Shown here piece by piece: positions 5,420 to 50,132 of a DNA stretch of 64,000 nt. This stretch comes from a virus (Duplodnaviria; Caudoviricetes). How positions within the stretch are numbered: the first letter of the stretch is position 1; each line of letters starts with the position of its first letter. A model generated the notes under the pieces. The model saw only the letters and a program-made list of their open reading frames with translations, was not told where the DNA came from and did not search any database. The translations under genes were made by a program, and so were the position numbers. The stretch is taken from the IMG/VR virus record IMGVR_UViG_3300035208_004396, one strand, 5' to 3'.

Positions 5420-6142
5420 TCACCAGGTAGTGGTATTCCAATCATTTTTAACTTGCTTTACTCTATTAGCATATAATATTTTACCTGCTAAAATATTGTA
5501 ACCTCTGTTTAATGATAAAGCCACATTATCAGGGACAATATAGTTTATAGCATTAAAACAACCCGGTTTATTATAAGAGGGGATTCTGAAAATATATCCA
5601 TTTAATAACAGTATATTGGTATAGGCTTGATCATCTTGATTATCTGAAAAAAGTTCCGGTGTCATAAACTTTTCCCACCCATTTAGCATTTTTTTAGATA
5701 CTACACCAGCACAACCCGAGCTATATAATGACGTTTTTCCGTTAATTGTCAAGTGATCTATTCCATTTTCAGTAATACCACACATTTTATTATACTTCGA
5801 AAATTCTACTATTCTTTTTTCTAATAAATCCTTCGGCATTTTAAGCATATCATCATCCAAATAAATGATGATATCATCAGGATTTAGAAATTGCAAAATA
5901 GGAAATACTTTTTTCATAGTTTTAGAATTTTCTTTAACCCAGTTTATTTTGAACCAATCATCGATTTTATCTACTAAATCTTTAGGTAAATCGTCATTTT
6001 TACTTGGAAATTCATCACTTGACAATGTTAAATAAAAATTATCTGGCACTAAAGTCTGATTTTTTATTAAATCTACCATTTTTGACACATTTTTGATTCT
6101 TTTACGCCATGATGTCATGCAACAAACAATTTTATCGATCAT
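5420..6142 (-). CDS. GT-A glycosyltransferase, paralog of the N domain of 3930..5417
   Basis: MTSWRKR, KKVFPIL, YLDDD. Confidence 0.75.
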   Translation of the reverse strand: MIDKIVCCMTSWRKRIKNVSKMVDLIKNQTLVPDNFYLTLSSDEFPSKNDDLPKDLVDKIDDWFKINWVKENSKTMKKVFPILQFLNPDDIIIYLDDDMLKMPKDLLEKRIVEFSKYNKMCGITENGIDHLTINGKTSLYSSGCAGVVSKKMLNGWEKFMTPELFSDNQDDQAYTNILLLNGYIFRIPSYNKPGCFNAINYIVPDNVALSLNRGYNILAGKILYANRVKQVKNDWNTTTW

Positions 6143-9624: not shown

Positions 9625-10246
9625 TTTATTAAAACACGTATCACGAATACATAAAATAGATCCAGAGACTTTTTTCAAGACTTATGTTGAACCGTGGGAG
9701 CATGTTTGTAAAATATGCGGTAAACCGACTGAATATGATGTTAGAAGAAAAAGGTTCAAATATGTTTGTAGAGATTGTTCAAAACATAAAAAACAGGATT
9801 ATTATACTCAAAAATTAACTTGTTTAATATGTAAAAAAACTTTTACAAACTATGCTAATTTAGGTGTACATTTGAAAGAGCATCACATAAGTATGAGAGA
9901 ATATCGAGCTAAATATGAGCCACAACATTTCGAATGTCAAAGATGTCATGCTAGTTTAGATCATAAGCATAAGTTATGTAAAAAATGTAGAGATATTAAC
10001 TATTTTTTGACTTTAATGCACAAGTATTATTCTATATATTTCAAAATATATAATAGTTTTCAGTGTTATTTAAGAAAGCATCCCACCGGCGGAACAAGAT
10101 ATTACTCAGTGGTTTTGAAACATCTCAATGATGTTACTAGAAAATTATTATATTATAAGATGAAATTTAAAGAAACGAGGAATAAATGGAACTCAATTTT
10201 ACCGGTAGACTCACCGCTGTGTCGTTATCAAAAGATGAAGATTTGA
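9587..10246 (+). CDS. multi-zinc-finger protein
   Basis: CPIC..H..H, CKIC..CRDC, CLIC..H..H, CQRC..CKKC. Confidence 0.75.
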   Translation: MKSCPICGKKCNDLLKHVSRIHKIDPETFFKTYVEPWEHVCKICGKPTEYDVRRKRFKYVCRDCSKHKKQDYYTQKLTCLICKKTFTNYANLGVHLKEHHISMREYRAKYEPQHFECQRCHASLDHKHKLCKKCRDINYFLTLMHKYYSIYFKIYNSFQCYLRKHPTGGTRYYSVVLKHLNDVTRKLLYYKMKFKETRNKWNSILPVDSPLCRYQKMKI

Positions 10247-31072: not shown

Positions 31073-32572
31073 ATGAGCATATTAGCTGAATTAAATTCTG
31101 GTTTTACACCTACAGTTTGGAATAGAAAAACTGTTGCTGATGGAGATTATCTCCAAAACATGACGATTGGCCCCATTTTCAGCGGTGAACAATTCTTAGC
31201 TAATCAAATAGATTTAGTAAAAACGAGTGGGGATTATTCGTTTTCATATTTACAGGATAGCGCAGCTAACTTGAATAGCGCTTATATTTATTCTACATCT
31301 CACCTGGGAAATTTAACTATCTCTGGGAGTTATAATGGTATAACATCTAATTTTAATTACGATGGAACTACTAATGTTACTGCTGGATTAACTGACATAT
31401 TTACCAAAATATCAGATGATATATTCTCAAGAATAACTTATAAAGTCGTAGATGATACTGCTGCTATTTTAACTGATAAGAACACTACATTGATCTATTT
31501 GATAGCTCAATCTGGTGCTAGTCCGGATTCATATTACGAATATATTTACGATGCTAATACTAGTGCTGCTAAAATGATAGGAGATACTTCGTTAGCTCTA
31601 TCTGGTTATGCTACCAAAACAGAATTATCAACGGAAACTGATTCTAGAATCAGTGAGGATTCAGCTATATCTGCTAATTTGAGCACTGTTTCTAGCATAG
31701 TTTCGGCTAATAGTGCTAATTGGAATACTGCATATACATGGGTACAGACTAATAGTGCACAGGCTCTTATAAGCTTAGATGTGTATAATCTTAATTATAA
31801 TTCGGAAACTTATAATTATTCTACCGGTTATAGAACATCTCTAATTAATTATTCTGGTGCTCATTCTTTAAGTGCTGGTGGTAGTAATTTACAATTTATA
31901 GGGTATTTAACTGGTACAAATTTATCTAGTTCTTGGGTTAATTTGGGTATGTTGATGCCTAGGGCTACACCAAACATGTCAGCTGATCAAGTTTATGTAT
32001 GTCTTAAAAATAATACGGATATTGAAAATTATAATTGGTTATCGATAAACACTCTTTCTTTTGCAAATGGTACTAATTTATTAGGGGGCTTTAGTTATAG
32101 CGGATCATATACCGGAAGTACCGGTACTACTGGAATAAATCAATATAATCAAGTTATCAAATTACCATGTCTAACAGAAGTTTTTTCACAAACTAAAACA
32201 ACCGCTAGCACTAATTATACTTTAACTGAAGAAGGGTGGTATGATATCGATGGTACATTATACATTAAGGGTAAAACTGGATCTATAACAGATCTTACTT
32301 TCTCCTATGATATGACTCAGTTAATAACTTCTACCTATACACTTACTTCGGATTTAACTAATGAAATTTTTTCACATGAAGGTATTGATGAAAAAATACC
32401 ATTTCATGCTAAATTATTTGCTATTACTGGTGAATCCGGTAGTTTAGTAATAAATCCTAATTCGGTAAGTGCTTGGTTTAGTTCTGCTAGTTCTGCTGCT
32501 AATTTCAATTCTACTGGAACTAGCACTTATGCTATAGCTAATTACATTATAACCAGAAGAAATTATGCTTAA
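31073..32572 (+). CDS. tail fibre-like structural protein
   Basis: S/T/A-rich; IYLI...YYEYIY...MIGDTSLALSGYATK; late promoter. Confidence 0.6.
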   Translation: MSILAELNSGFTPTVWNRKTVADGDYLQNMTIGPIFSGEQFLANQIDLVKTSGDYSFSYLQDSAANLNSAYIYSTSHLGNLTISGSYNGITSNFNYDGTTNVTAGLTDIFTKISDDIFSRITYKVVDDTAAILTDKNTTLIYLIAQSGASPDSYYEYIYDANTSAAKMIGDTSLALSGYATKTELSTETDSRISEDSAISANLSTVSSIVSANSANWNTAYTWVQTNSAQALISLDVYNLNYNSETYNYSTGYRTSLINYSGAHSLSAGGSNLQFIGYLTGTNLSSSWVNLGMLMPRATPNMSADQVYVCLKNNTDIENYNWLSINTLSFANGTNLLGGFSYSGSYTGSTGTTGINQYNQVIKLPCLTEVFSQTKTTASTNYTLTEEGWYDIDGTLYIKGKTGSITDLTFSYDMTQLITSTYTLTSDLTNEIFSHEGIDEKIPFHAKLFAITGESGSLVINPNSVSAWFSSASSAANFNSTGTSTYAIANYIITRRNYA

Positions 32573-33034
32573 TTGGAGGTTAATATGAAAATTTCAAATG
32601 TATCATTTACTGATATTAGATTAAAAGCGATGGGAAATAGATATTATGAGATAGCCGAACCTTTGTCTATAGTAATAAATACGGACAAAGATATCTTGGT
32701 TTATCATTTCGATGCCGGTTTTGTTACTAATTTCCGAAGTGGCGGAGCAATAGTAGATAGTTTCATAGATCAAATAGGAGATGAAGCTCATCAAATATGT
32801 TGGCTTATACACGATTCGAATTATACTCCATGTGATATGTTGAATATGGCACATCCGTTATCCAAGTCAGATAGTGATAAATTGTTAAGAGCAATGTTGA
32901 GAAAAGCAGGGGAAAGTTCATTTAAGGTTGATATGGTGTATTATTCAGTTAAGATATTTGGTAAGTCTGCTTACTATGATGATGACTCATTAACGGAAAA
33001 AAACTCAAAATTATTCAAATTTAAGAAAAATTAG
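32573..33034 (+). CDS. DUF1353 family protein
   Basis: GFVTNF, IHD, SDKLL, YYSVKIFG; start may be ATG 32585. Confidence 0.7.
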   Translation: MEVNMKISNVSFTDIRLKAMGNRYYEIAEPLSIVINTDKDILVYHFDAGFVTNFRSGGAIVDSFIDQIGDEAHQICWLIHDSNYTPCDMLNMAHPLSKSDSDKLLRAMLRKAGESSFKVDMVYYSVKIFGKSAYYDDDSLTEKNSKLFKFKKN

Positions 33035-34181: not shown

Positions 34182-35468
34182 ATGCTTATACTTAATAAAA
34201 ATCATGCTGGTCAGTCAGATAAGCTAAAGCTTTCCGGCATTACAGATCCGATCATTCGTGAAAATACACGCCAATTGATCGAAAACATTCAAGGTTATCA
34301 AACTAAATCGAAATTGAACGAAGATTTTGGTATTGGTTTGAATCCGCCTACTGGTTTGAATCAAGGTATTCCTACTGGTGGAATTGGCCATGGTGCTTAT
34401 GCTCCAGTAACTTGGGCAGTTGCTCGAAGGGCTTTCCCCGATCTTATCTCTAACGTATTGGTTGGTAACCACGTTATGAAGACACCGGCAGAACAGATTT
34501 TCGCACTTCGTAACATTTATTTAACTAATGATAAGACGAAGATGGTTGAAGCTGCATGGCGTGCCGTTGGTAAGTTCTCTGGTTTTACTGGTTCTCAACC
34601 CGGTCGTGAAGGTCCAGTTGATTCTGGTACTGCCGCTGCTGGTACGGAGAATCCTGAACACTGGAAACTTGGCGGCGATCCTGCTAAGTTCGAAAAGATG
34701 CCAGAACTTGGTATCAACATGATTTCTCAGGTCGTTGTGGCCCAGAAACGTCAGGTTGGTGCTTCTATCAGTACTGATGCTCTTGAGGATTTGAATTCCC
34801 AACATAGTATTGATGGTTTACAACATCTCACTCGTTTGTTACAATATGAGTTAAGTGCGGAAATGGATCGTGAAACTATTTCTCATTGTAAAGCTCATTG
34901 TATTCCTCAGATTATCAATAAGTCCGATACGACTTTAGCTGATAACACGGGATGGGTCGGTAGAAGTTCTATGGAACGTTTCTCTTGGATCAGAACTTTG
35001 ATCATGAGAAAGGCTAACGAAATTGGTACTGCTACTCGTATTAGTGCTGCTAACGTAATGGTGGTTTCACCTGATGTTGCTACAGTATTACAAGCTGGTA
35101 ACAGCCAATATTTCACTGCTTTCAACGGAACGGTTGATGCTTTGAAAACCACGGCAGAAATTGGTACCTTAAATGGTAACATTCGGTGCTTCGTGGATAG
35201 ATATCAGGGTGGTGAACATGCCAATGGCACAGAAGATACCGGAGAAGTTCTTCTAGCTTATAAGGGTAGTGCAAACGATGACGCTGGTGTTATCTTCTGT
35301 CCTTATATCATGGACGTTGTGCAAACTGCTACTGATCCTAACGACTTCTCACCTAGGGTTGCTGTAAAGGCTCGTTATGCTTATGCAGATAACATTCTCG
35401 GTTCAGAAAACTATTATCGGTTATTGAAGTTCAACAAGATCTTCGATGACGCTAACCTTGTGTTCTAA
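34182..35468 (+). CDS. major capsid protein (gp23-like)
   Basis: LIEN, ARRAFP, IFALR, EMDRE, YKG...DAGVIFCPY, DPNDFSPR...RYA. Confidence 0.95.
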   Translation: MLILNKNHAGQSDKLKLSGITDPIIRENTRQLIENIQGYQTKSKLNEDFGIGLNPPTGLNQGIPTGGIGHGAYAPVTWAVARRAFPDLISNVLVGNHVMKTPAEQIFALRNIYLTNDKTKMVEAAWRAVGKFSGFTGSQPGREGPVDSGTAAAGTENPEHWKLGGDPAKFEKMPELGINMISQVVVAQKRQVGASISTDALEDLNSQHSIDGLQHLTRLLQYELSAEMDRETISHCKAHCIPQIINKSDTTLADNTGWVGRSSMERFSWIRTLIMRKANEIGTATRISAANVMVVSPDVATVLQAGNSQYFTAFNGTVDALKTTAEIGTLNGNIRCFVDRYQGGEHANGTEDTGEVLLAYKGSANDDAGVIFCPYIMDVVQTATDPNDFSPRVAVKARYAYADNILGSENYYRLLKFNKIFDDANLVF

Positions 35469-38860: not shown

Positions 38861-39792
38861 ATAATATGAAAGTTGAAAAGATAGATTATACAAAGTTTTC
38901 ATTGCTTAAACCCGTAGAAGATACATGTATGATTCAGTCCGATACAGATTCTATGTATATGAGTGCGGATGAATTATACCAAAAGACACCTGATATGGAC
39001 GATATGAAGTTCTTATTAGGTATAGATAAGATGTTTGGCGATTTTTGGAACAATTTTTTAACTAATAAAGCTAAATCAGAAGGGGTCGAAGATCTTATTA
39101 AATTCAGTAGAGAGAGCTTATTTGGGTCATTTTTGTCTATTAAAAAGAAGATGTATATAGGTACCAAGGTAGTAGAAGATGATCAAATCTATGGTTATGA
39201 TCATTGGAAACCCAAGATTAGTGGTATTTCGTTGCATAAGTCAGCTATGCCCAAATTCTGTAAAACTAAAGGTGATCCCTTGATTTTTAACATTTTGACT
39301 AAACATAATAAAGCAGAAACCGATTCCGAAATGGTGAATATTTTTAACGAATATAAGAAACAGAAAATAGAAGATATAAGTTCAAATGGCTCAATAGGTG
39401 ATTATAAGAAATATGTTCCTGAAAGAATGAAAACTTATTTATCTGAGCCAATTTTGTCTAATTTTATGAAAGGTTGGTCAATTAATGCAAAAATGGCATT
39501 CAGTTATAATTGGATTCTTGAAAAATTCAATTTACCTTTGACACCTATTAGTAGTGGAGAAAAATTCAATTATATCTTCGTTAAGCCTACAAATCAGTTT
39601 GGTATAGAATCTATAGCTTATGTTGATGAATGGCCAGAACAATTTTCGAAATTTTTTGAGATTGATTATGAAATGTCTTTTAGAAAGTTCTTTTTACCTA
39701 TTTTCGATCAGGTTTATAATATAATCCATTGGAAAAATGATGACGAAATTATACCGTTGAAATGGTCAAGTTTGGATTTTTTGCACGGTTGA
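38857..39792 (+). CDS. family B DNA polymerase, C-terminal subunit only (split gp43)
   Basis: Motif C SDTDS, KKKMY, KISGI, SGEK..YI, IDYE; no exo, motif A or motif B. Confidence 0.85.
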   Translation: MNNMKVEKIDYTKFSLLKPVEDTCMIQSDTDSMYMSADELYQKTPDMDDMKFLLGIDKMFGDFWNNFLTNKAKSEGVEDLIKFSRESLFGSFLSIKKKMYIGTKVVEDDQIYGYDHWKPKISGISLHKSAMPKFCKTKGDPLIFNILTKHNKAETDSEMVNIFNEYKKQKIEDISSNGSIGDYKKYVPERMKTYLSEPILSNFMKGWSINAKMAFSYNWILEKFNLPLTPISSGEKFNYIFVKPTNQFGIESIAYVDEWPEQFSKFFEIDYEMSFRKFFLPIFDQVYNIIHWKNDDEIIPLKWSSLDFLHG

Positions 39793-40121
39793 TATATAAG
39801 ATTATGATAAAACAATTGTTAAAACTTTATTGTGCCAGACGTGTTATAACGGGTGGTTCTATTGCATATATGTTTGAAAGTATTAAAGATTGGTCCCCTC
39901 TATTAGATAAACTTCGTAAAGAATTCTTAAAGAATCCAAATACATATTTGAAAGAGATTTCGGAATTTTTATCGAATGTGCCTGATAAATCTTTCATCGA
40001 TTTGAATGATTGTCCGAAAGAGGATTATCTCGAACACAACAAAATTTTCGTATTACATGTTACAGAATATAGAAATATGCTTTATTCATTACAAACCGTG
40101 ATGCAAAAAATGGCAAAATGA
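39762..40121 (+). CDS. hypothetical protein
   Basis: ORF track. Confidence 0.55.
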   Translation: MVKFGFFARLIYKIMIKQLLKLYCARRVITGGSIAYMFESIKDWSPLLDKLRKEFLKNPNTYLKEISEFLSNVPDKSFIDLNDCPKEDYLEHNKIFVLHVTEYRNMLYSLQTVMQKMAK

Positions 40122-41788: not shown

Positions 41789-42699
41789 TATGCTAATGTT
41801 ATCTTGAAACTATAATCGCCTTTATTCCAAGACCCTATTTTTAAGGAATTACATATTCGATATGCTTCTCCTACACTGTTAGGTGCAGAAAACATTCTAT
41901 AATCACTATCGTTTAATAATAACAACCAGGATAAATAATTTAATTTTGAATAAGCATACAGATGACATGATGCTAAAGTCACTTTTAGATCTTTATACCT
42001 AGAATAAACTTCCATAGCTTCATTAGATATGCTAATTGAAGGTTTAGATAAATTCTGCAAATATGAAAAAACTTGATATAAACCTTTATTATCCGTGTTA
42101 TTCTTAATAATTTCGATATATTCATCTGTAAGTTCATCTGTTATTTCATCTATTCCAAGTTGTTTGAACAATGAAAGCATTAAAGATTTACTCATCATTT
42201 TAAATCTATTGTCTTGACCATCACCGAATTTTCCACCTTTACCTTTGACTTCTATTTTTTGATTGGTATCTAAATCTACTAAATCCCCTTTGTCTTTACA
42301 AAAACCTAAATTTACAAATAATGATGCGAAAAGAAATTCACCTCTACCTATTGCAGGTCTATTAGTTGTTACTCTTAAAGCATCAGTGATATATTCGGGT
42401 TTAAGATAACCATCTAGACTGGATTGTTTCAACAGTGATGATAATTTAGCAGGACCATATTCCATAGGTTTAAAATGAGTTTTATATAATTTTTCAAAGA
42501 ATTTATCTGGAAAACCTATCAAATCTTTCTCAATTATCTGAGCATGATCTGTAATAACATTATGTTTACCAGATTTAGTTTCTGTCCATAACTTTGCTAA
42601 TTTTGCTTCTATATTGTCCAAATTTATCTCATTTTTTATCCTTTGCAAGATATCATCGTTAACTTGAACTTCTTTACCATTTACGGATACATTTGGCAT
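41788..42699 (-). CDS. PD-(D/E)xK nuclease-fold protein
   Basis: GRGE...GDL......IEVK. Confidence 0.5.
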   Translation of the reverse strand: MPNVSVNGKEVQVNDDILQRIKNEINLDNIEAKLAKLWTETKSGKHNVITDHAQIIEKDLIGFPDKFFEKLYKTHFKPMEYGPAKLSSLLKQSSLDGYLKPEYITDALRVTTNRPAIGRGEFLFASLFVNLGFCKDKGDLVDLDTNQKIEVKGKGGKFGDGQDNRFKMMSKSLMLSLFKQLGIDEITDELTDEYIEIIKNNTDNKGLYQVFSYLQNLSKPSISISNEAMEVYSRYKDLKVTLASCHLYAYSKLNYLSWLLLLNDSDYRMFSAPNSVGEAYRICNSLKIGSWNKGDYSFKITLA

Positions 42700-42700
42700 A

Positions 42701-42712
42701 TCATATATATGA
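42701..42712. promoter_or_regulatory. palindromic bidirectional late promoter TCATATATATGA
   Basis: CATATATA on both strands, 4 and 5 nt from divergent ATGs. Confidence 0.7.
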
Positions 42713-42714
42713 AT

Positions 42715-45357
42715 ATGGCGAACAGTACAAATTCATCTAATTTAGATTATACTAAGTTGACTCATTCTCAAATAGTAAACGATTTCATTCAACGAGTAAA
42801 AAATGATTCTAGATTTGCCAAATTATCTAATGCTTCGATATTCGTATTATTAACCGAAGCTGTTGCTGGTGTATTTGATATGTCAAATTATTATATTCAA
42901 CGTACTGCCGAAGAAAATTTCATAGACACTGCAAGATTAACTAGTTCTATAATAAAATGGTGTCATAATCTTTCATATCAACCTAGAAGACCTATACCGG
43001 CTCATGCTAATATAGCAGTTCAATTAAAAGGTCCACTACCTATTACTTGTAGTATAGGTGATGTTATTTGGTTCAATACTAATGATATAAACTTCACATA
43101 TTCGGATCATAATTACATATTCCAGAATTCTTATTCTTATACCTTAACTGCTAGTGATATTTCTAATGGTAAAAGTTCTACATGGTCTAAATTAATCAAA
43201 TATGCAATACCTAGTAAAATAAAAGATGGTTATATAGACTTAAATGGGGCAAAAGCATATAAAACAGGTGATCTTGAAGATGTTAAAGTGATTCAAGGTA
43301 CAAGAAAAACTACTACTATTAAAGCTAAAGATTATGTCCATAAAATGAGAAAACAATATCAAAAATATGATATTAACGATCTTAATTTCTCAGATTACAT
43401 TGGCGAACGGGATCCTTTTGCTATCAAAAATGATGTTATTTATCCGGCAAACGGGATTTGTAGAATCGGCTTAAGCAAAGATGTAAATAATCCTTATGAA
43501 AGAACTTTTAATATCGAATTAACTGATATTTATCTTAATTCTTCAGCATTAGCTTATAACGATTCGAATACTACACCAGAAAATCCACTTGATATTTGTA
43601 AGGTTTATTCTAATCAAGATAAAACTGTTAGAATTGAATTCGGTGATGGTGCTATTGCTTCTAACGGGTTCAATAATATAGAAGAAATATTAACAATTTC
43701 TTATTTGAGCACAGATGGTTATGTTGCAAATAAGTCGGGTTCAACAGGAGATCTGATAAAAACATCAAATAAGTTCTATTCTATCGGTACTAACATAACG
43801 AATGTAACTAATAATATTTCGTTTATTTTACAATCTGATATAGCAGGCGGATCTGATTTTGAAAGTGATGAAAAGATGAAAAGAAATGCTAAAATAGCAT
43901 TTTCAAGTCAAAATTCTCTTATTTCATTGCAGGATTATCAATCATTCTTGATGACACTTTCGGATCCTATTAATGTTCAACATGCTTCTGTTGTAAGCGA
44001 ATATAAAACAGAATCTAGCATTACTGGAGAACATCACGAGTTACAAAACGTTTTGCTTTATTCTATTACGAATTCATTTTACAGAAATTCTAAACCTTTG
44101 AATATATTCGATGATCAATATGATACTACGGCATATAGCAATTTAATGCTTTATGACAATAGAACCGAGTATCTCGATCATATTTTAGACACGTATCGCT
44201 TATATAAAGCACCTTATCAGTTCTATTTGACTCAATATGGTGATAATACGAGTTCGTTCAGGTCAAAATTACAGGATATCCAAGGACGAATCAAATATAA
44301 AACAGAAACTAGTTCTAGGTTATATAGTATAATTCCAATAGTTCATTACTTCGATATTGTAGGAAATATAAAAGTTAATAAAACGGCTGATATCGGAACA
44401 ATAAAAAATAACTTGGAAACAGAGATTACTGAATACTTTGACAAAAATGTAACATTTAACACAGAAGTTTATAAAGCCGATCTATCATCTAAAATTCTAA
44501 ATATTGATAATGTTGCAACAGCCACAATAGATATAAAACCATCTAATTTGCTAAAATCACCAGATGTAACTTATAATTTCATATATGGTACTAATTTCGA
44601 ATTGAAGTTAGTTAATTCAACATTAGAAAATAATTACAATATCTTATTACTAGATATAAACACATCTAATGGATCAATTATCAGTGCTGATTTATTAGCT
44701 AATAAAAGATTGAGTATCACCATTTATTATACTAATTCTGCTGGTGTACTGGCGAGTTATAATCTAAATATCATTCCTAAATCGGTAACTGAGTATAATG
44801 GAATAGTAACTATTGTTACACCTAACAATTTCGAAATAGATGGAACTATTAGTTCGGAAAATGAAATGGAATTGTTAGTTGCCGAAGAAGATGATTTAGC
44901 TAGTCTTAGTGCATTATCTCGGGATAGTGTTTATTCTACAGGTACTAACACTATACTAGGATCAGATGTATTAAAGGCTTTGACTAATTATCTTTCTAGC
45001 TTAGATACTAAAGTTACAGCTGATCGAGCAATACCATTGCCATATTATCTTTATGCTTATCCTAAATATGGTCATGCTGAAGAATATAAAAAATTATCTA
45101 ACTCGGATTATAATGTAGCAAAATTCTTATATGAAGGGCTAGATAATATAATAAAATCATTGAATATAACATTAGAATCAACTAATTTAACTAGTTCTAA
45201 TTGGATTATAGTAAATATGATGGTGAAAGATCTATATATGATATTGGCAGCAAGTTTAGCCGATAGCGTATTAGATGAAAATAATAACGTTGTAAATTAT
45301 TCTTTACCTAACGAAATACCAGTTTTCAGATTGAATCAACTTACTTATTCATATTAA
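42715..45357 (+). CDS. baseplate wedge gp6-like
   Basis: LDYTKL, EENFIDTA..SSI...LSYQP, IEFGDG, GGSDFES, QN..IS..DY; start moved to ATG 42715. Confidence 0.85.
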   Translation: MANSTNSSNLDYTKLTHSQIVNDFIQRVKNDSRFAKLSNASIFVLLTEAVAGVFDMSNYYIQRTAEENFIDTARLTSSIIKWCHNLSYQPRRPIPAHANIAVQLKGPLPITCSIGDVIWFNTNDINFTYSDHNYIFQNSYSYTLTASDISNGKSSTWSKLIKYAIPSKIKDGYIDLNGAKAYKTGDLEDVKVIQGTRKTTTIKAKDYVHKMRKQYQKYDINDLNFSDYIGERDPFAIKNDVIYPANGICRIGLSKDVNNPYERTFNIELTDIYLNSSALAYNDSNTTPENPLDICKVYSNQDKTVRIEFGDGAIASNGFNNIEEILTISYLSTDGYVANKSGSTGDLIKTSNKFYSIGTNITNVTNNISFILQSDIAGGSDFESDEKMKRNAKIAFSSQNSLISLQDYQSFLMTLSDPINVQHASVVSEYKTESSITGEHHELQNVLLYSITNSFYRNSKPLNIFDDQYDTTAYSNLMLYDNRTEYLDHILDTYRLYKAPYQFYLTQYGDNTSSFRSKLQDIQGRIKYKTETSSRLYSIIPIVHYFDIVGNIKVNKTADIGTIKNNLETEITEYFDKNVTFNTEVYKADLSSKILNIDNVATATIDIKPSNLLKSPDVTYNFIYGTNFELKLVNSTLENNYNILLLDINTSNGSIISADLLANKRLSITIYYTNSAGVLASYNLNIIPKSVTEYNGIVTIVTPNNFEIDGTISSENEMELLVAEEDDLASLSALSRDSVYSTGTNTILGSDVLKALTNYLSSLDTKVTADRAIPLPYYLYAYPKYGHAEEYKKLSNSDYNVAKFLYEGLDNIIKSLNITLESTNLTSSNWIIVNMMVKDLYMILAASLADSVLDENNNVVNYSLPNEIPVFRLNQLTYSY

Positions 45358-47507: not shown

Positions 47508-47634
47508 ATTTTACCTTTTTTAATAATAGATTCTTTGAAAATCTGAATCTAGAACGTGATTATATTTGAATATAGTTATATATTTTACTTATTTTCGTTG
47601 AAAATGACCATTTTAGTCACTTCATATATACAAT

Positions 47635-47790
47635 ATGAACGAAGAATTTTCTAATGGTGTAGTTAATACTGGTTTATCGACTGGAGTACCAACTGGCGGT
47701 ATAGGTAAGGGAGCTACGTGTCATCCCGTACCACATTTTCGTGATTTTTATAAGCGAAAGAAGAAAAAGGTAAAAAATGAAAATAAATAA
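47635..47790 (+). CDS. 51-aa late peptide resembling the mature MCP N-terminal arm
   Basis: MNEEFSNGVVNTGLSTGVPTGGIGKGATCHPVPHFRDFYKRKKKKVKNENK; CATATATA-N4-ATG. Confidence 0.75.
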   Translation: MNEEFSNGVVNTGLSTGVPTGGIGKGATCHPVPHFRDFYKRKKKKVKNENK

Positions 47791-48586
47791 CATTTATATT
47801 GATTTAGAAGGTGTTTTAGCTGATTTTTTATGTCAAGCCCATACTTACAATATGGTTAACAGCAAAGGTATAGCAGACTGGAATTCTATACGTGTTGCCG
47901 GTGCTTCATTTTGGCCTACTATGCCCTGGACAAAAAATGGAAAAAGCCTTTTTGATATTTTAGTTCATTTTTGCATAGAAAACAACATCAATTTATGCAT
48001 ATTAGCTATTGCTAATGATGATAGCATGAAATCTGGGAAAACAGATTGGATTAAGAACAATTTGCACATTAACTTGTTAAACGTTCATTTCGTTAAAACT
48101 GGTTTTGATAAATCTAGATTTGCCAATCCTTCTTCCGTATTAATAGATGATTTTTATAAAAATGTTGCTTATTTCAGAGCTAGACAAGGTTATGCGATAT
48201 TATATAAAAATAATCCAGATGACATTATAGTTCAACTCAATAATCTAGTTGCAGGAATAATTCCGGAAAAATATATCGCGGAAGCTATACATGACAAAAA
48301 AGTGATCCGAGATGGTAAAAAAGAGGTTAAAAAAGTAACCGATAGAAAAGGTTATCGTGTAGAATATGATAAAGTTACTAATCTACCTAAAGAAGTAAAA
48401 ATAACTACTAAAGAGAAATTAGCTAGGAAACAGGGTCAAAAAAGTGGCAGTTTGAAACGTTATGGTCAAATTAATGTTATGCAACAGAGACGAGAACGTT
48501 CATTTAAGATACGAGATATGCAAGGTCTGGCACATTACTCTGATAATCATGGTAAAATTATATTACCCAAATTAAAGGACGATTAA
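47777..48586 (+). CDS. HAD 5'(3')-deoxyribonucleotidase-like domain fused to a basic domain
   Basis: IYIDLEGVLADF, K..W, LIDD...N; C-terminal KKVIRDGKK...GYRV. Confidence 0.7.
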   Translation: MKINNIYIDLEGVLADFLCQAHTYNMVNSKGIADWNSIRVAGASFWPTMPWTKNGKSLFDILVHFCIENNINLCILAIANDDSMKSGKTDWIKNNLHINLLNVHFVKTGFDKSRFANPSSVLIDDFYKNVAYFRARQGYAILYKNNPDDIIVQLNNLVAGIIPEKYIAEAIHDKKVIRDGKKEVKKVTDRKGYRVEYDKVTNLPKEVKITTKEKLARKQGQKSGSLKRYGQINVMQQRRERSFKIRDMQGLAHYSDNHGKIILPKLKDD

Positions 48587-48589
48587 ATC

Positions 48590-49165
48590 ATGGCCGGTTT
48601 GACTAATTTTTTCAACATGAAATATAAATCTAATGCTAAATTTCTAGTTTATATAAAAATTGGCACCGGTGATAGATTGTTATTAACTACAGTAAAAGAT
48701 GTTACACTTCCTAAACTAACATTAGGTACATTAGAACTAAAATATGGTAATGTTAATGAAACTGTAATGATTCCGAAATATGGTACTGAAGATTTACAAT
48801 TAGACATCATGGAAGATAGTCATTTTTCTATATATTCTATGATAGTTGCATTAAAACATGAAAATTATGCCCCGTATGATTATGTTAATGCAGGTTATAT
48901 TGGTAGGGATGATGTTAATATAGAAGTTGATGAATTGTCTATGGATAATTCTAGAATTCTTATTAAACATATATTTAATAATTGTAAATTATCAAATAAT
49001 GATGCCTTAGTTTTGGATTATCAGAATACCGGCCCTACATTTTATAATATTTCCTTTGCATATCAAAAATATGTAATTCAATACACAACGGATAATACTA
49101 TGATAAACGATCCATCTTTTCAAAAAAGTATAGTGGATGCTAAACCTATACTAAGTAAATCATGA
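48590..49165 (+). CDS. tail tube-like protein (gp19/gp54 fold)
   Basis: KDVTLPK.......YG, I.ED, H.F.NC, LDY, F.ISFAY. Confidence 0.6.
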   Translation: MAGLTNFFNMKYKSNAKFLVYIKIGTGDRLLLTTVKDVTLPKLTLGTLELKYGNVNETVMIPKYGTEDLQLDIMEDSHFSIYSMIVALKHENYAPYDYVNAGYIGRDDVNIEVDELSMDNSRILIKHIFNNCKLSNNDALVLDYQNTGPTFYNISFAYQKYVIQYTTDNTMINDPSFQKSIVDAKPILSKS

Positions 49166-49608
49166 ATGATTTTTTCCCCGCAACATTGATTACAAATGGT
49201 CATTTTTATGGATTTCAATACAATCCAGCTAATATAGTGCCGAATTATGATGCTTTTCCTCTGATTTATTGTGTTGGGCCATCTTTGACCAATATAAACA
49301 ATATTCGTGGTTTGAATTTACATCATATTCCTAGAACTCAAAGATTTGAATTTTTAAAGAAAATGGAAAAGGAGTACAATTTCACGAATAAATCTCGTTG
49401 TGTTTTGACAGATGACCAATTAAATAGATTATTACCAGGTGTTATAGTAGCAATACGTGAATATAGTAGAAAAAGAATGTGTCAAGTATTCGAAATTTAT
49501 AATAAATCTATGCCCAAATTCATATATTCGGATGGAAATATAAGGCAATGTATTCCCGATCGCGAAGTTATAGATTATTTTGCTAAAAGCAATAATGCTC
49601 ACGTATGA
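49162..49608 (+). CDS. DNA end protector (gp2-like)
   Basis: FYGFQY, YDAFPLI, GLNLHHIP, IREY. Confidence 0.75.
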   Translation: MNDFFPATLITNGHFYGFQYNPANIVPNYDAFPLIYCVGPSLTNINNIRGLNLHHIPRTQRFEFLKKMEKEYNFTNKSRCVLTDDQLNRLLPGVIVAIREYSRKRMCQVFEIYNKSMPKFIYSDGNIRQCIPDREVIDYFAKSNNAHV

Positions 49609-50132
49609 GTGAGAATCTTTCCTAATTCAGAATTGATTTTCTTTACCGAATATAACATAGAAGTAGTTTTAGCATTAGATAGCGCATTTTGTAATCTCAT
49701 ATCACCATTGGCACTCTTAATCCAACTAGAAGTAGAAAAATAAGATAATTTATACCGTAACCATTCTCTAAGTTTAGCCATTAATAGATCCAAATTAGAT
49801 ATCGAATCTTCTTCTTCTGATGTTTCTGGTTCTCTGATTAAATTCCCATTTTTGTCAATCAAACCTAGTTTATAAGCTTTAGTTTGAGTTGGTATAGTCA
49901 TTAAAGACTTTATGAATATGAAAACTAATATATTATCAATCTCTCTACTATGAGTCATCATATTCAATCTTTTATTAGGATCGTTAAGCTTCTCGGAAAT
50001 TAGATTTAAATCCGCATGATATGAACAGTAAAGATTACAATTATTATACAATTTCTGAATGAACTTCAGTCCGCTAAGTTCTGAATCGACTAAACTATTC
50101 AATTTTTCAAAAACGAACTGATCTGTATCCAT
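49599..50132 (-). CDS. conserved T4-like hypothetical protein
   Basis: FIKSL..P..TKAYKLGLIDKNG. Confidence 0.7.
   Translation of the reverse strand: MDTDQFVFEKLNSLVDSELSGLKFIQKLYNNCNLYCSYHADLNLISEKLNDPNKRLNMMTHSREIDNILVFIFIKSLMTIPTQTKAYKLGLIDKNGNLIREPETSEEEDSISNLDLLMAKLREWLRYKLSYFSTSSWIKSANGDMRLQNALSNAKTTSMLYSVKKINSELGKILTHT

Follow-up and report, generated by a model that had tools for sequence, protein, structure and literature searches.

The assembly of T4-like phage heads is a textbook system, and several of its components resemble the small gene described here. In T4, the N-terminal region of the major capsid protein lies inside the unexpanded prohead, where it probably contacts the scaffolding core, and it becomes the external arm and N-fist once the head has expanded (PMC9546572). 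The internal proteins IPI, IPII and IPIII are small, basic and expressed late; they are targeted by short N-terminal propeptides ending in a hydrophobic-x-Glu motif, cut after the Glu by the protease gp21, and packed with the DNA (PMC9026906). The vertex protein gp24 is a full-length paralogue of the capsid protein gp23, whose short propeptide is likewise removed by cleavage behind a Glu and whose N-terminal region contacts neighbouring capsomers. To our knowledge, a copy of some 30 residues of the capsid arm following the cut site is not known for the T4 internal proteins, and the literature we searched held no description of a separate protein carrying the N-terminal arm of the phage’s own capsid protein.

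The closest known analogue, as we treat it here, is a cyanophage protein cluster, Sullivan’s T4-GC 426, which is found in 283 cyanophage records (e.g., PSSM4_163, Syn33_189 and CYXG_00152 of phage S-SSM4). Its members are labelled “hypothetical protein” in GenBank and “major head protein” in RefSeq (NC_020875.1, 137860–138726; NC_006884.2, 157936–158475; NC_015285.1, 151110–151667), and supplementary file 3 of Sullivan 2010 (PMC3037559) enters YES for it in the column “Existence of Proteomic Data?”. In the literature searched, there was no published function for T4-GC 426 and no mention of an arm copy.

The DNA analysed here is a 64,000-nucleotide stretch (hereafter, the window; G+C content 30.6%) of a very divergent T4-like phage. 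It had no match in the phage DNA collection, and its major capsid protein of the gp23 family (P0001, 428 aa; 34182–35468, + strand; Pfam PF07068 (Gp23), E = 7e-56) is only about 30% identical to that of the closest GenBank phages, which are cyanophages. The gene of interest, ORF51 (P0002; 47635–47790, + strand), lies 13.3 kb downstream of the capsid gene and encodes 51 amino acids; it is the unannotated gene put forward by the initial annotation, with exactly the same coordinates and sequence. Its codons 1–29 (47635–47721, + strand) read M-N-E, then EF..G..TGL..GVP.GGIGKGATC, and correspond to capsid residues 45–73. The template of the similarity, capsid residues 45–76 (34314–34409, + strand), comprises an LNE-DF motif (putative prohead-protease site) and the N-terminal arm. 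The tail sequence of ORF51, YKRKKKKVKNENK, includes an aromatic and polybasic tract (FRDFYKRKKKKVKNENK; 47737–47790, + strand), and the part after the Glu is basic (net charge +7, pI 10.1), like the internal proteins of T4.

The initial annotation had aligned ORF51 with the capsid segment at and after the predicted LNE site, while allowing that the resemblance might be insignificant against a Gly-rich background. Three kinds of comparison uphold the alignment. With BLASTP, 16 of 28 residues are identical to capsid residues 45–72 (pairwise E = 1e-7); with six-frame tblastn, the capsid match is the only significant non-self hit of ORF51 in the 64-kb window (E = 5.8e-6; next hit 1.8); and the Smith–Waterman score of the pair is 77, against 27 ± 4.3 for shuffles of ORF51 (maximum 61; 0/5000 reach 77). 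Shuffles of the Gly-rich capsid segment 40–100 never reach this score either. The similarity is thus not an effect of composition, because no shuffle attains the observed value. Moreover, the match begins at L-N-E-D-F, a motif that conforms to the hydrophobic-x-Glu specificity known for the prohead protease of T4 and that is nearly invariant, as L(N/T)E-DF, in 51 related capsid proteins; we infer that it is the actual cut site of capsid maturation. A profile alignment, unreliable in this stretch, places capsid residues 45–76 on residues 57–97 (approximately) of T4 gp23. ORF51 and its orthologue (P0011, see below) also match the capsid arms of other lineages. No match of ORF51 to PF07068 was found, the model starting at capsid residue 73, past the copied arm. 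Like gp24, ORF51 would be a capsid-gene duplicate, and its arm segment is consistent with descent from the capsid gene; unlike gp24, which retains the whole HK97-type fold, it retains the arm only and, devoid of an HK97-type body, cannot be a subunit of the shell. A complex prediction for ORF51 and two capsid proteins devoid of the arm (residues 78–428) returned a score of 0.00, which is evidence neither way.

ORF51 is conserved, and so is the basic tail that the initial annotation had described after the arm-like part. The 51-aa product is gene-called on at least 7 metagenome contigs, and an exhaustive HMMER search recovered a 59-aa orthologue, P0011, which is 64% identical to ORF51 and keeps the tail as RFQDFYKKKKEK. 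P0011 is encoded at a syntenic position on the 130-kb contig of a relative (L007), whose capsid protein is 85% identical to that of the window; it was also the sole relative found by a word-based protein search. The same exhaustive search returned P0010 (784 aa, repetitive), which we regard as a low-complexity artefact. In codon alignment, ORF51 and P0011 are 63% identical, compared to 42–50% for the three downstream genes, with pN = 0.24 and pS = 0.78, silent sites being saturated. Among strain variants of ORF51, there are about 11 silent changes and about 3–4 replacements, of which 7 silent changes and no replacement fall in arm codons 1–29. These substitution patterns confirm that ORF51 is a real gene under purifying selection. 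As for database families, ORF51, P0131 and the arm-bearing protein of G403 (see below) had no match in Pfam, PHROGs, the ESM Atlas or GenBank phages (tblastn), and P0011 matched no PHROGs or Pfam family; ORF51 shares no sequence similarity with the T4 internal proteins either (PHROGs, Pfam). Scans of viral and metagenome contigs with patterns taken from the ORF51 alignment were likewise without match.

Beyond these two close lineages, which are the only ones with a 51–59-aa form, arm-bearing genes exist in other uncultured T4-like phages. The MAG with the next-closest capsid protein (G001; 54% identical) encodes, directly upstream of a nucleotidase-like gene, a 243-aa protein with a 117-aa acidic leader ending in M-N-E, followed by DFGMGV..TG..GVP.GG, a Pro-rich linker and a Lys/Arg tail; it was the sole match in an order-level search of 401 genomes. 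Degenerate-pattern scans and whole-record searches further uncovered a second, small arm-bearing ORF in seven IMG/VR records of 55–424 kb (G402, G403, G404, G405, G407, G408 and G410), the proteins being 67–219 aa long, and such an ORF was present in 3/3 complete viral records searched. The common layout consists of an acidic leader of about 0–115 aa (charge –4 to –18), a hydrophobic-x-Glu motif, an arm copy of some 30 aa, often a Cys, aromatic residues, a poly-Lys/Arg tract and an optional C-terminal extension. Residues preceding the arm are V-N-E, L-D-E, L-V-E or M-N-E across the family. Four records (G402, G403, G405 and G410) have acidic leaders of 15–19 aa ending in LDE or LVE, which resemble those of the T4 internal proteins, and two (G001 and G408) have leaders of 99–117 aa, while ORF51 has only M-N-E before the arm and P0011 has MTT-N-E. 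The part after the Glu is basic (pI 9.3–11.5) in 6 of the 9 records listed. ORF51 is the smallest, minimal member of a hitherto undescribed family found in uncultured gut-type T4-like phages, including genomes of 185–424 kb. Two records show variations around the arm gene: in G407 (L117:2434–2748), the arm gene is immediately preceded by a 104-aa ORF that looks like a tandem duplicate of the leader domain of its product, and in G408 (L108:3253–3408), a separate 51-aa ORF corresponds to the C-terminal acidic part, which is fused in G407.

The conservation in relatives on which the initial annotation had staked its proposal therefore consists of the 59-aa orthologue and of an arm copy kept in at least 8 lineages with different neighbours. 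This bears on one alternative, namely that ORF51 is a functionless remnant of a partial duplication of the capsid gene or an upstream ORF that helps the next gene to start. Such a reading would account for the 14-nt overlap (ATGAAAATAAATAA; 47777–47790, + strand) by which ORF51 runs into the start of the next gene, an overlap also kept in L007 once the start of that gene is set at position 10167, and for the purine-rich tail DNA, which doubles as the ribosome-binding region of the next gene; the restriction of the 51–59-aa form to two close lineages also speaks for it. The overlap suggests translational coupling, and the tail DNA may be partly constrained as a ribosome-binding region. Yet there is a strong deficit of replacements although silent divergence has reached saturation, and the arm copy is retained in lineages whose neighbouring genes differ. 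Largely refuted by the pN/pS values, a remnant or accessory ORF appears extremely improbable. A frameshift fusion of ORF51 with the next gene was also considered and dropped, as the overlap context is not common to G405 and others.

The initial annotation had also credited ORF51 with its own late promoter, which holds only in part. The canonical T4 late promoter TATAAATA does not occur upstream of ORF51 and is not enriched in the window, and there is no Shine–Dalgarno sequence upstream of the ORF51 start. What does occur, 4 nt before the ATG, is an ATATATA motif (47624–47630, + strand), invariant in all strain variants, which is a candidate promoter or leaderless start signal. The same arrangement is found in 7 of the 56 other ATG-start genes of the window, against 0.16–0.53 expected; these seven genes start at 6142, 14572, 16877, 19381, 26134, 42699 and 62073, with ATATATA 3–9 nt before the ATG and no Shine–Dalgarno sequence. 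This distribution suggests that ATATATA is a promoter yielding leaderless or near-leaderless mRNAs; other genes of the window have AGGAG sites. With respect to gene calling, the listed starts of the genes at 42643–45357 (TTG at 42643) and 39762–40121 (ATG at 39762) are probably incorrect; at 42715 and 39804, respectively, ATATATA is followed by an ATG in the same frame, and a start at 42715 would abolish the overlap with a divergent gene. Among relatives, four lineages (L007, G402, G403 and G410) have TATAAATA upstream of their arm gene, and two of these (G403 and G410) also have it upstream of the capsid gene. The L007 orthologue is preceded by TATAAATA, then GAGG, then the ATG, and retains TCATATAT (compare the region of the ATATATA motif of ORF51). 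The presence of TATAAATA in these relatives fits late expression of the arm genes, without being proof of it.

ORF51 has a UvsX gene, transcribed divergently, on one side and three consecutive genes on the other. The first of these (47777–48586, + strand, 269 aa; phrog_2643, E = 5e-18) encodes a protein with an N-terminal domain resembling 5′-3′ deoxyribonucleotidases and a basic C-terminal half, and its orthologue follows the counterpart of ORF51 in L007 and G001. In this putative product, the HAD-type D-M-D-G motif of relatives is replaced by D-L-E-G, the second Asp having become Glu, while the C-terminal half is a conserved Lys/Arg-rich region. The second gene (48590–49165, + strand, 191 aa; phrog_45, E = 1e-6) is tail-tube-like, and the third (49162–49608, + strand, 148 aa; phrog_429, E = 2.5e-16; PF26869 precomputed on relatives) encodes a gp2-like DNA end protector, a gene that the arm gene directly abuts in G405. 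Next comes a gene on the opposite strand (49599–50132, – strand; phrog_18642/2086), which is a neighbour of the arm gene conserved in distant relatives, lying 2–3 genes from it in G402, G403 and G405. Gene order across these genomes ties the arm gene to head genes. When the neighbouring genes (UvsX, nucleotidase-like, gp2-like) were used as anchors in viral contigs, they returned one non-syntenic locus, L006, or nothing, and the nucleotidase anchor in metagenomes returned 80 loci sharing only the common nucleotidase domain, none of them with the arm motif. The otherwise syntenic block of L007 carries an inserted IS605 OrfB/TnpB (Cas12f-like) gene (L007:14145–15368). Regarding the protease that would act on the hydrophobic-x-Glu motif, a search of the window for homologues of the prohead protease had no match, and a Peptidase_S77 of the T4 gp21 type is present in 5/5 relatives searched. 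The position of the protease gene in T4, between the large ORF (31073–32572 in the window) and the scaffold gene, is occupied here by a gene for a 153-aa DUF1353/phrog_1158 protein (32573–33034).

A comparable arrangement exists in cultured cyanophages. We searched three GenBank Kyanoviridae phage records with the N-terminus of their own capsid protein, and cyanophage S-SSM4 had a second match, CYXG_00152, its T4-GC 426 member. This protein starts with MNVNE, then agrees with its capsid arm at 23 of 31 residues and continues with DFRKK and a Lys-rich region. Similarly, the P-SSM4 protein starts with MNE-E (MNE-EM), is identical at 18 of 26 residues to the LNE-T (LNE-TL) arm of its own capsid protein, and continues with PVxRFR and a K-rich stretch. 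No second copy of the phage’s own capsid arm was found in the two other GenBank Kyanoviridae records, Ochrobactrum phage OC and phage C48C1. Like ORF51, T4-GC 426 proteins begin at or within a few residues of the hydrophobic-x-Glu motif of the capsid protein (in ORF51, MNE-EF for the LNE-DF of the capsid), and copy about 25–30 residues of their own capsid arm (18/26, 16/24 and 23/31 identical). They depart from the capsid sequence right after “PV”, where x-F-R and a Lys-rich stretch follow; a “PV-x-x-F-R/Q” junction leading to a Lys-rich stretch is visible in both ORF51 and T4-GC 426, with an hhalign probability of 31.6% over 17 columns and no significant BLASTP match. Unlike ORF51, which ends at residue 51, they are 180–288 aa long, with a conserved C-terminal domain (residues ~73–197 in S-SSM4, the tblastn core), and their genes adjoin the gp61 primase gene rather than gp2. 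We therefore treat T4-GC 426 as an analogue of ORF51 and not as the same family, and the flag for virion proteomic data transfers to ORF51 by analogy only, because homology between the two is not demonstrable. The RefSeq label “major head protein” is apparently due to the short arm copy, and it is misleading because T4-GC 426 proteins are devoid of the capsid fold.

Co-evolution of the arm copy with the gp23 arm had been proposed by the initial annotation as a check. The outcome is positive: mean identity between arm copy and capsid arm is 0.67 for cognate pairs vs. 0.56 for non-cognate pairs. The observed cognate value is reached by 6 of 40320 permutations, a figure that we attribute to three records with identical capsid arms, and by 1 of 120 when five distinct lineages are used. 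Residues peculiar to a lineage are common to the copy and its cognate arm, i.e., GGIG(H/K)GA in the clade of the window, GGPGKGV.P in G408 and TGADQ...K-AV in G405, with one exception, G001, whose copy does not resemble its own capsid arm any more than it resembles those of other phages. Between copy and own capsid arm, pS is 0.46–1.0 (0.6–1.0 in 7/8 lineages) and pN 0.11–0.44; thus, in G405, 25/30 residues but only 6/25 codons are identical, and in G408, 24/30 residues but only 8/24 codons. The DNA of ORF51 is 0.61 identical to its own capsid gene vs. 0.56 to that of the relative, hence not clearly closer to its own. Recent gene conversion between the capsid gene and ORF51 was rejected on these two grounds, saturated silent sites and the lack of a clear preference for the own capsid gene, while old conversion events between capsid gene and arm copy are possible. 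That the copy stays close to its cognate arm in spite of saturated silent sites points to selection and not to recent gene conversion. Selection at the protein level now holds the arm copy close to the cognate capsid arm.

Co-variation of this kind is what would be expected if the peptide bound the capsid protein itself, as in one use suggested by the initial annotation, the filling of arm-binding grooves left empty at the portal or the vertices. The peptide would occupy arm or N-fist sites that have no capsid arm and serve as a small cement or plug, its basic tail touching DNA or acidic surfaces. The T4 arm and N-fist do contact extensively within and between capsomers (PMC9546572), and six-frame tblastn detected no gp24-like gene, i.e., no second full capsid paralogue, in the window. 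However, the leader-plus-cut-site layouts of relatives suit internal, processed proteins better, long and varied C-terminal extensions (up to ~150 aa) suit a snug plug poorly, and the mature arm and N-fist of T4 are external, away from the DNA. We thus consider such a plug or cement unlikely.

Tracking the cognate capsid arm is also what a decoy, a further suggestion of the initial annotation, would need: the free arm peptide would titrate a host sensor of the capsid protein, be it of the Lit/Gol, CapRel or Thoeris type. Defences that sense the capsid are known, Lit for example being activated by a peptide of T4 gp23 (PMC11312562). Nonetheless, the gene is kept in every complete genome searched and in very divergent phages, unlike patchy anti-defence genes, and neither late expression with head genes nor a tail of DNA-binding type would be necessary to a decoy. 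ORF51 also lacks the Gol peptide, which in T4 lies just after the region copied here. A decoy function appears very improbable.

Taken together, the acidic leaders ending in hydrophobic-x-Glu, the presence of a prohead protease in relatives and the proteomic flag of T4-GC 426 suggest a basic protein that is processed and associated with the head, in the manner of the T4 internal proteins, which fits the tethering of DNA, another suggestion of the initial annotation, better than a decoy. More specifically, ORF51 may encode a head protein, expressed late, whose recruitment, and in leader-bearing relatives probably also its cleavage, resembles that of the capsid protein, with a basic tail that binds DNA, a proposal we hold to be about evenly balanced between right and wrong. 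This family of small proteins would go back to a duplication of the 5′ part of the capsid gene, beginning at the maturation site. The N-terminal region of the T4 capsid protein being inside the prohead, the copied segment would therefore dock to the same partner, be it the scaffold or the inner shell, and so bring the small protein to it while the prohead assembles. In leader-bearing members, a T4-type prohead protease would then cleave behind the Glu, just as happens with the capsid protein and the T4 internal proteins, and the basic tail would bind the packaged DNA following degradation of the scaffold. ORF51 and its closest orthologue would have lost the leader and start directly with the cut-site motif. 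The steps that we infer are the cleavage behind the Glu, the entry into the head, the binding of DNA through the tail and the identity of the docking partner.

Several observations stand against this head-protein reading. Unlike the T4 internal proteins, ORF51 is devoid of a leader, so that a T4-style targeting propeptide is absent and a cut after M-N-E would remove only three residues, while the orthologue P0011 has T-N-E, with a poor P3 residue. Furthermore, the mature T4 capsid arm is on the outer surface (PMC9546572); the arm copy could likewise have its role on the exterior of the head, a location that suits a DNA-binding tail less well. On the same side stand the lack of a prohead protease homologue in the window, the exception of G001, the possible share of the ribosome-binding region in the conservation of the tail DNA, and a proteomic flag that transfers by analogy only. 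A role in the timing of assembly or maturation would dispense with a place in the virion: the peptide would compete for whatever recognises the cut site (prohead protease, scaffold or portal), thereby timing cleavage or limiting off-pathway polymerisation. In favour of such a regulator, the similarity begins exactly at hydrophobic-x-Glu in every lineage, the copy co-varies with the capsid arm and the arm genes appear to be late. It leaves the conserved aromatic and poly-K tract unexplained, however, and the very few cleavage determinants of T4 gp21 (PMC9026906) make a 30-residue mimic seem excessive, while the T4-GC 426 cluster is flagged with virion proteomic data. Regulation of this sort seems quite unlikely to us. 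All in all, the best-supported reading is that the ORF51 family comprises processed basic head proteins of T4-like phages with a previously unrecognised copy of the capsid arm.

A broader generalisation, which we regard as possible but put forward tentatively as the less likely outcome, is that in far-T4-like phages, whether jumbo phages of gut and rumen or cyanophages of the sea, the cut site plus the arm copy forms a self-matching address label, which co-evolves with the capsid protein because both dock to the same prohead partner, and through which every head receives a basic cargo that binds DNA and in some cases has additional domains. This principle would be distinct from the capsid targeting sequence of T4 and, if the address label is true, would be usable for loading cargo into capsids. 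The T4-GC 426 cluster, which is mislabelled and found in 283 cyanophage records, gains a testable function, and cultured cyanophages make the question of the arm copy directly testable. For the T4-like phages as a whole, an arm-bearing gene that is under selection in very divergent members and that tracks its cognate capsid protein suggests that the arm is a binding module with a partner.
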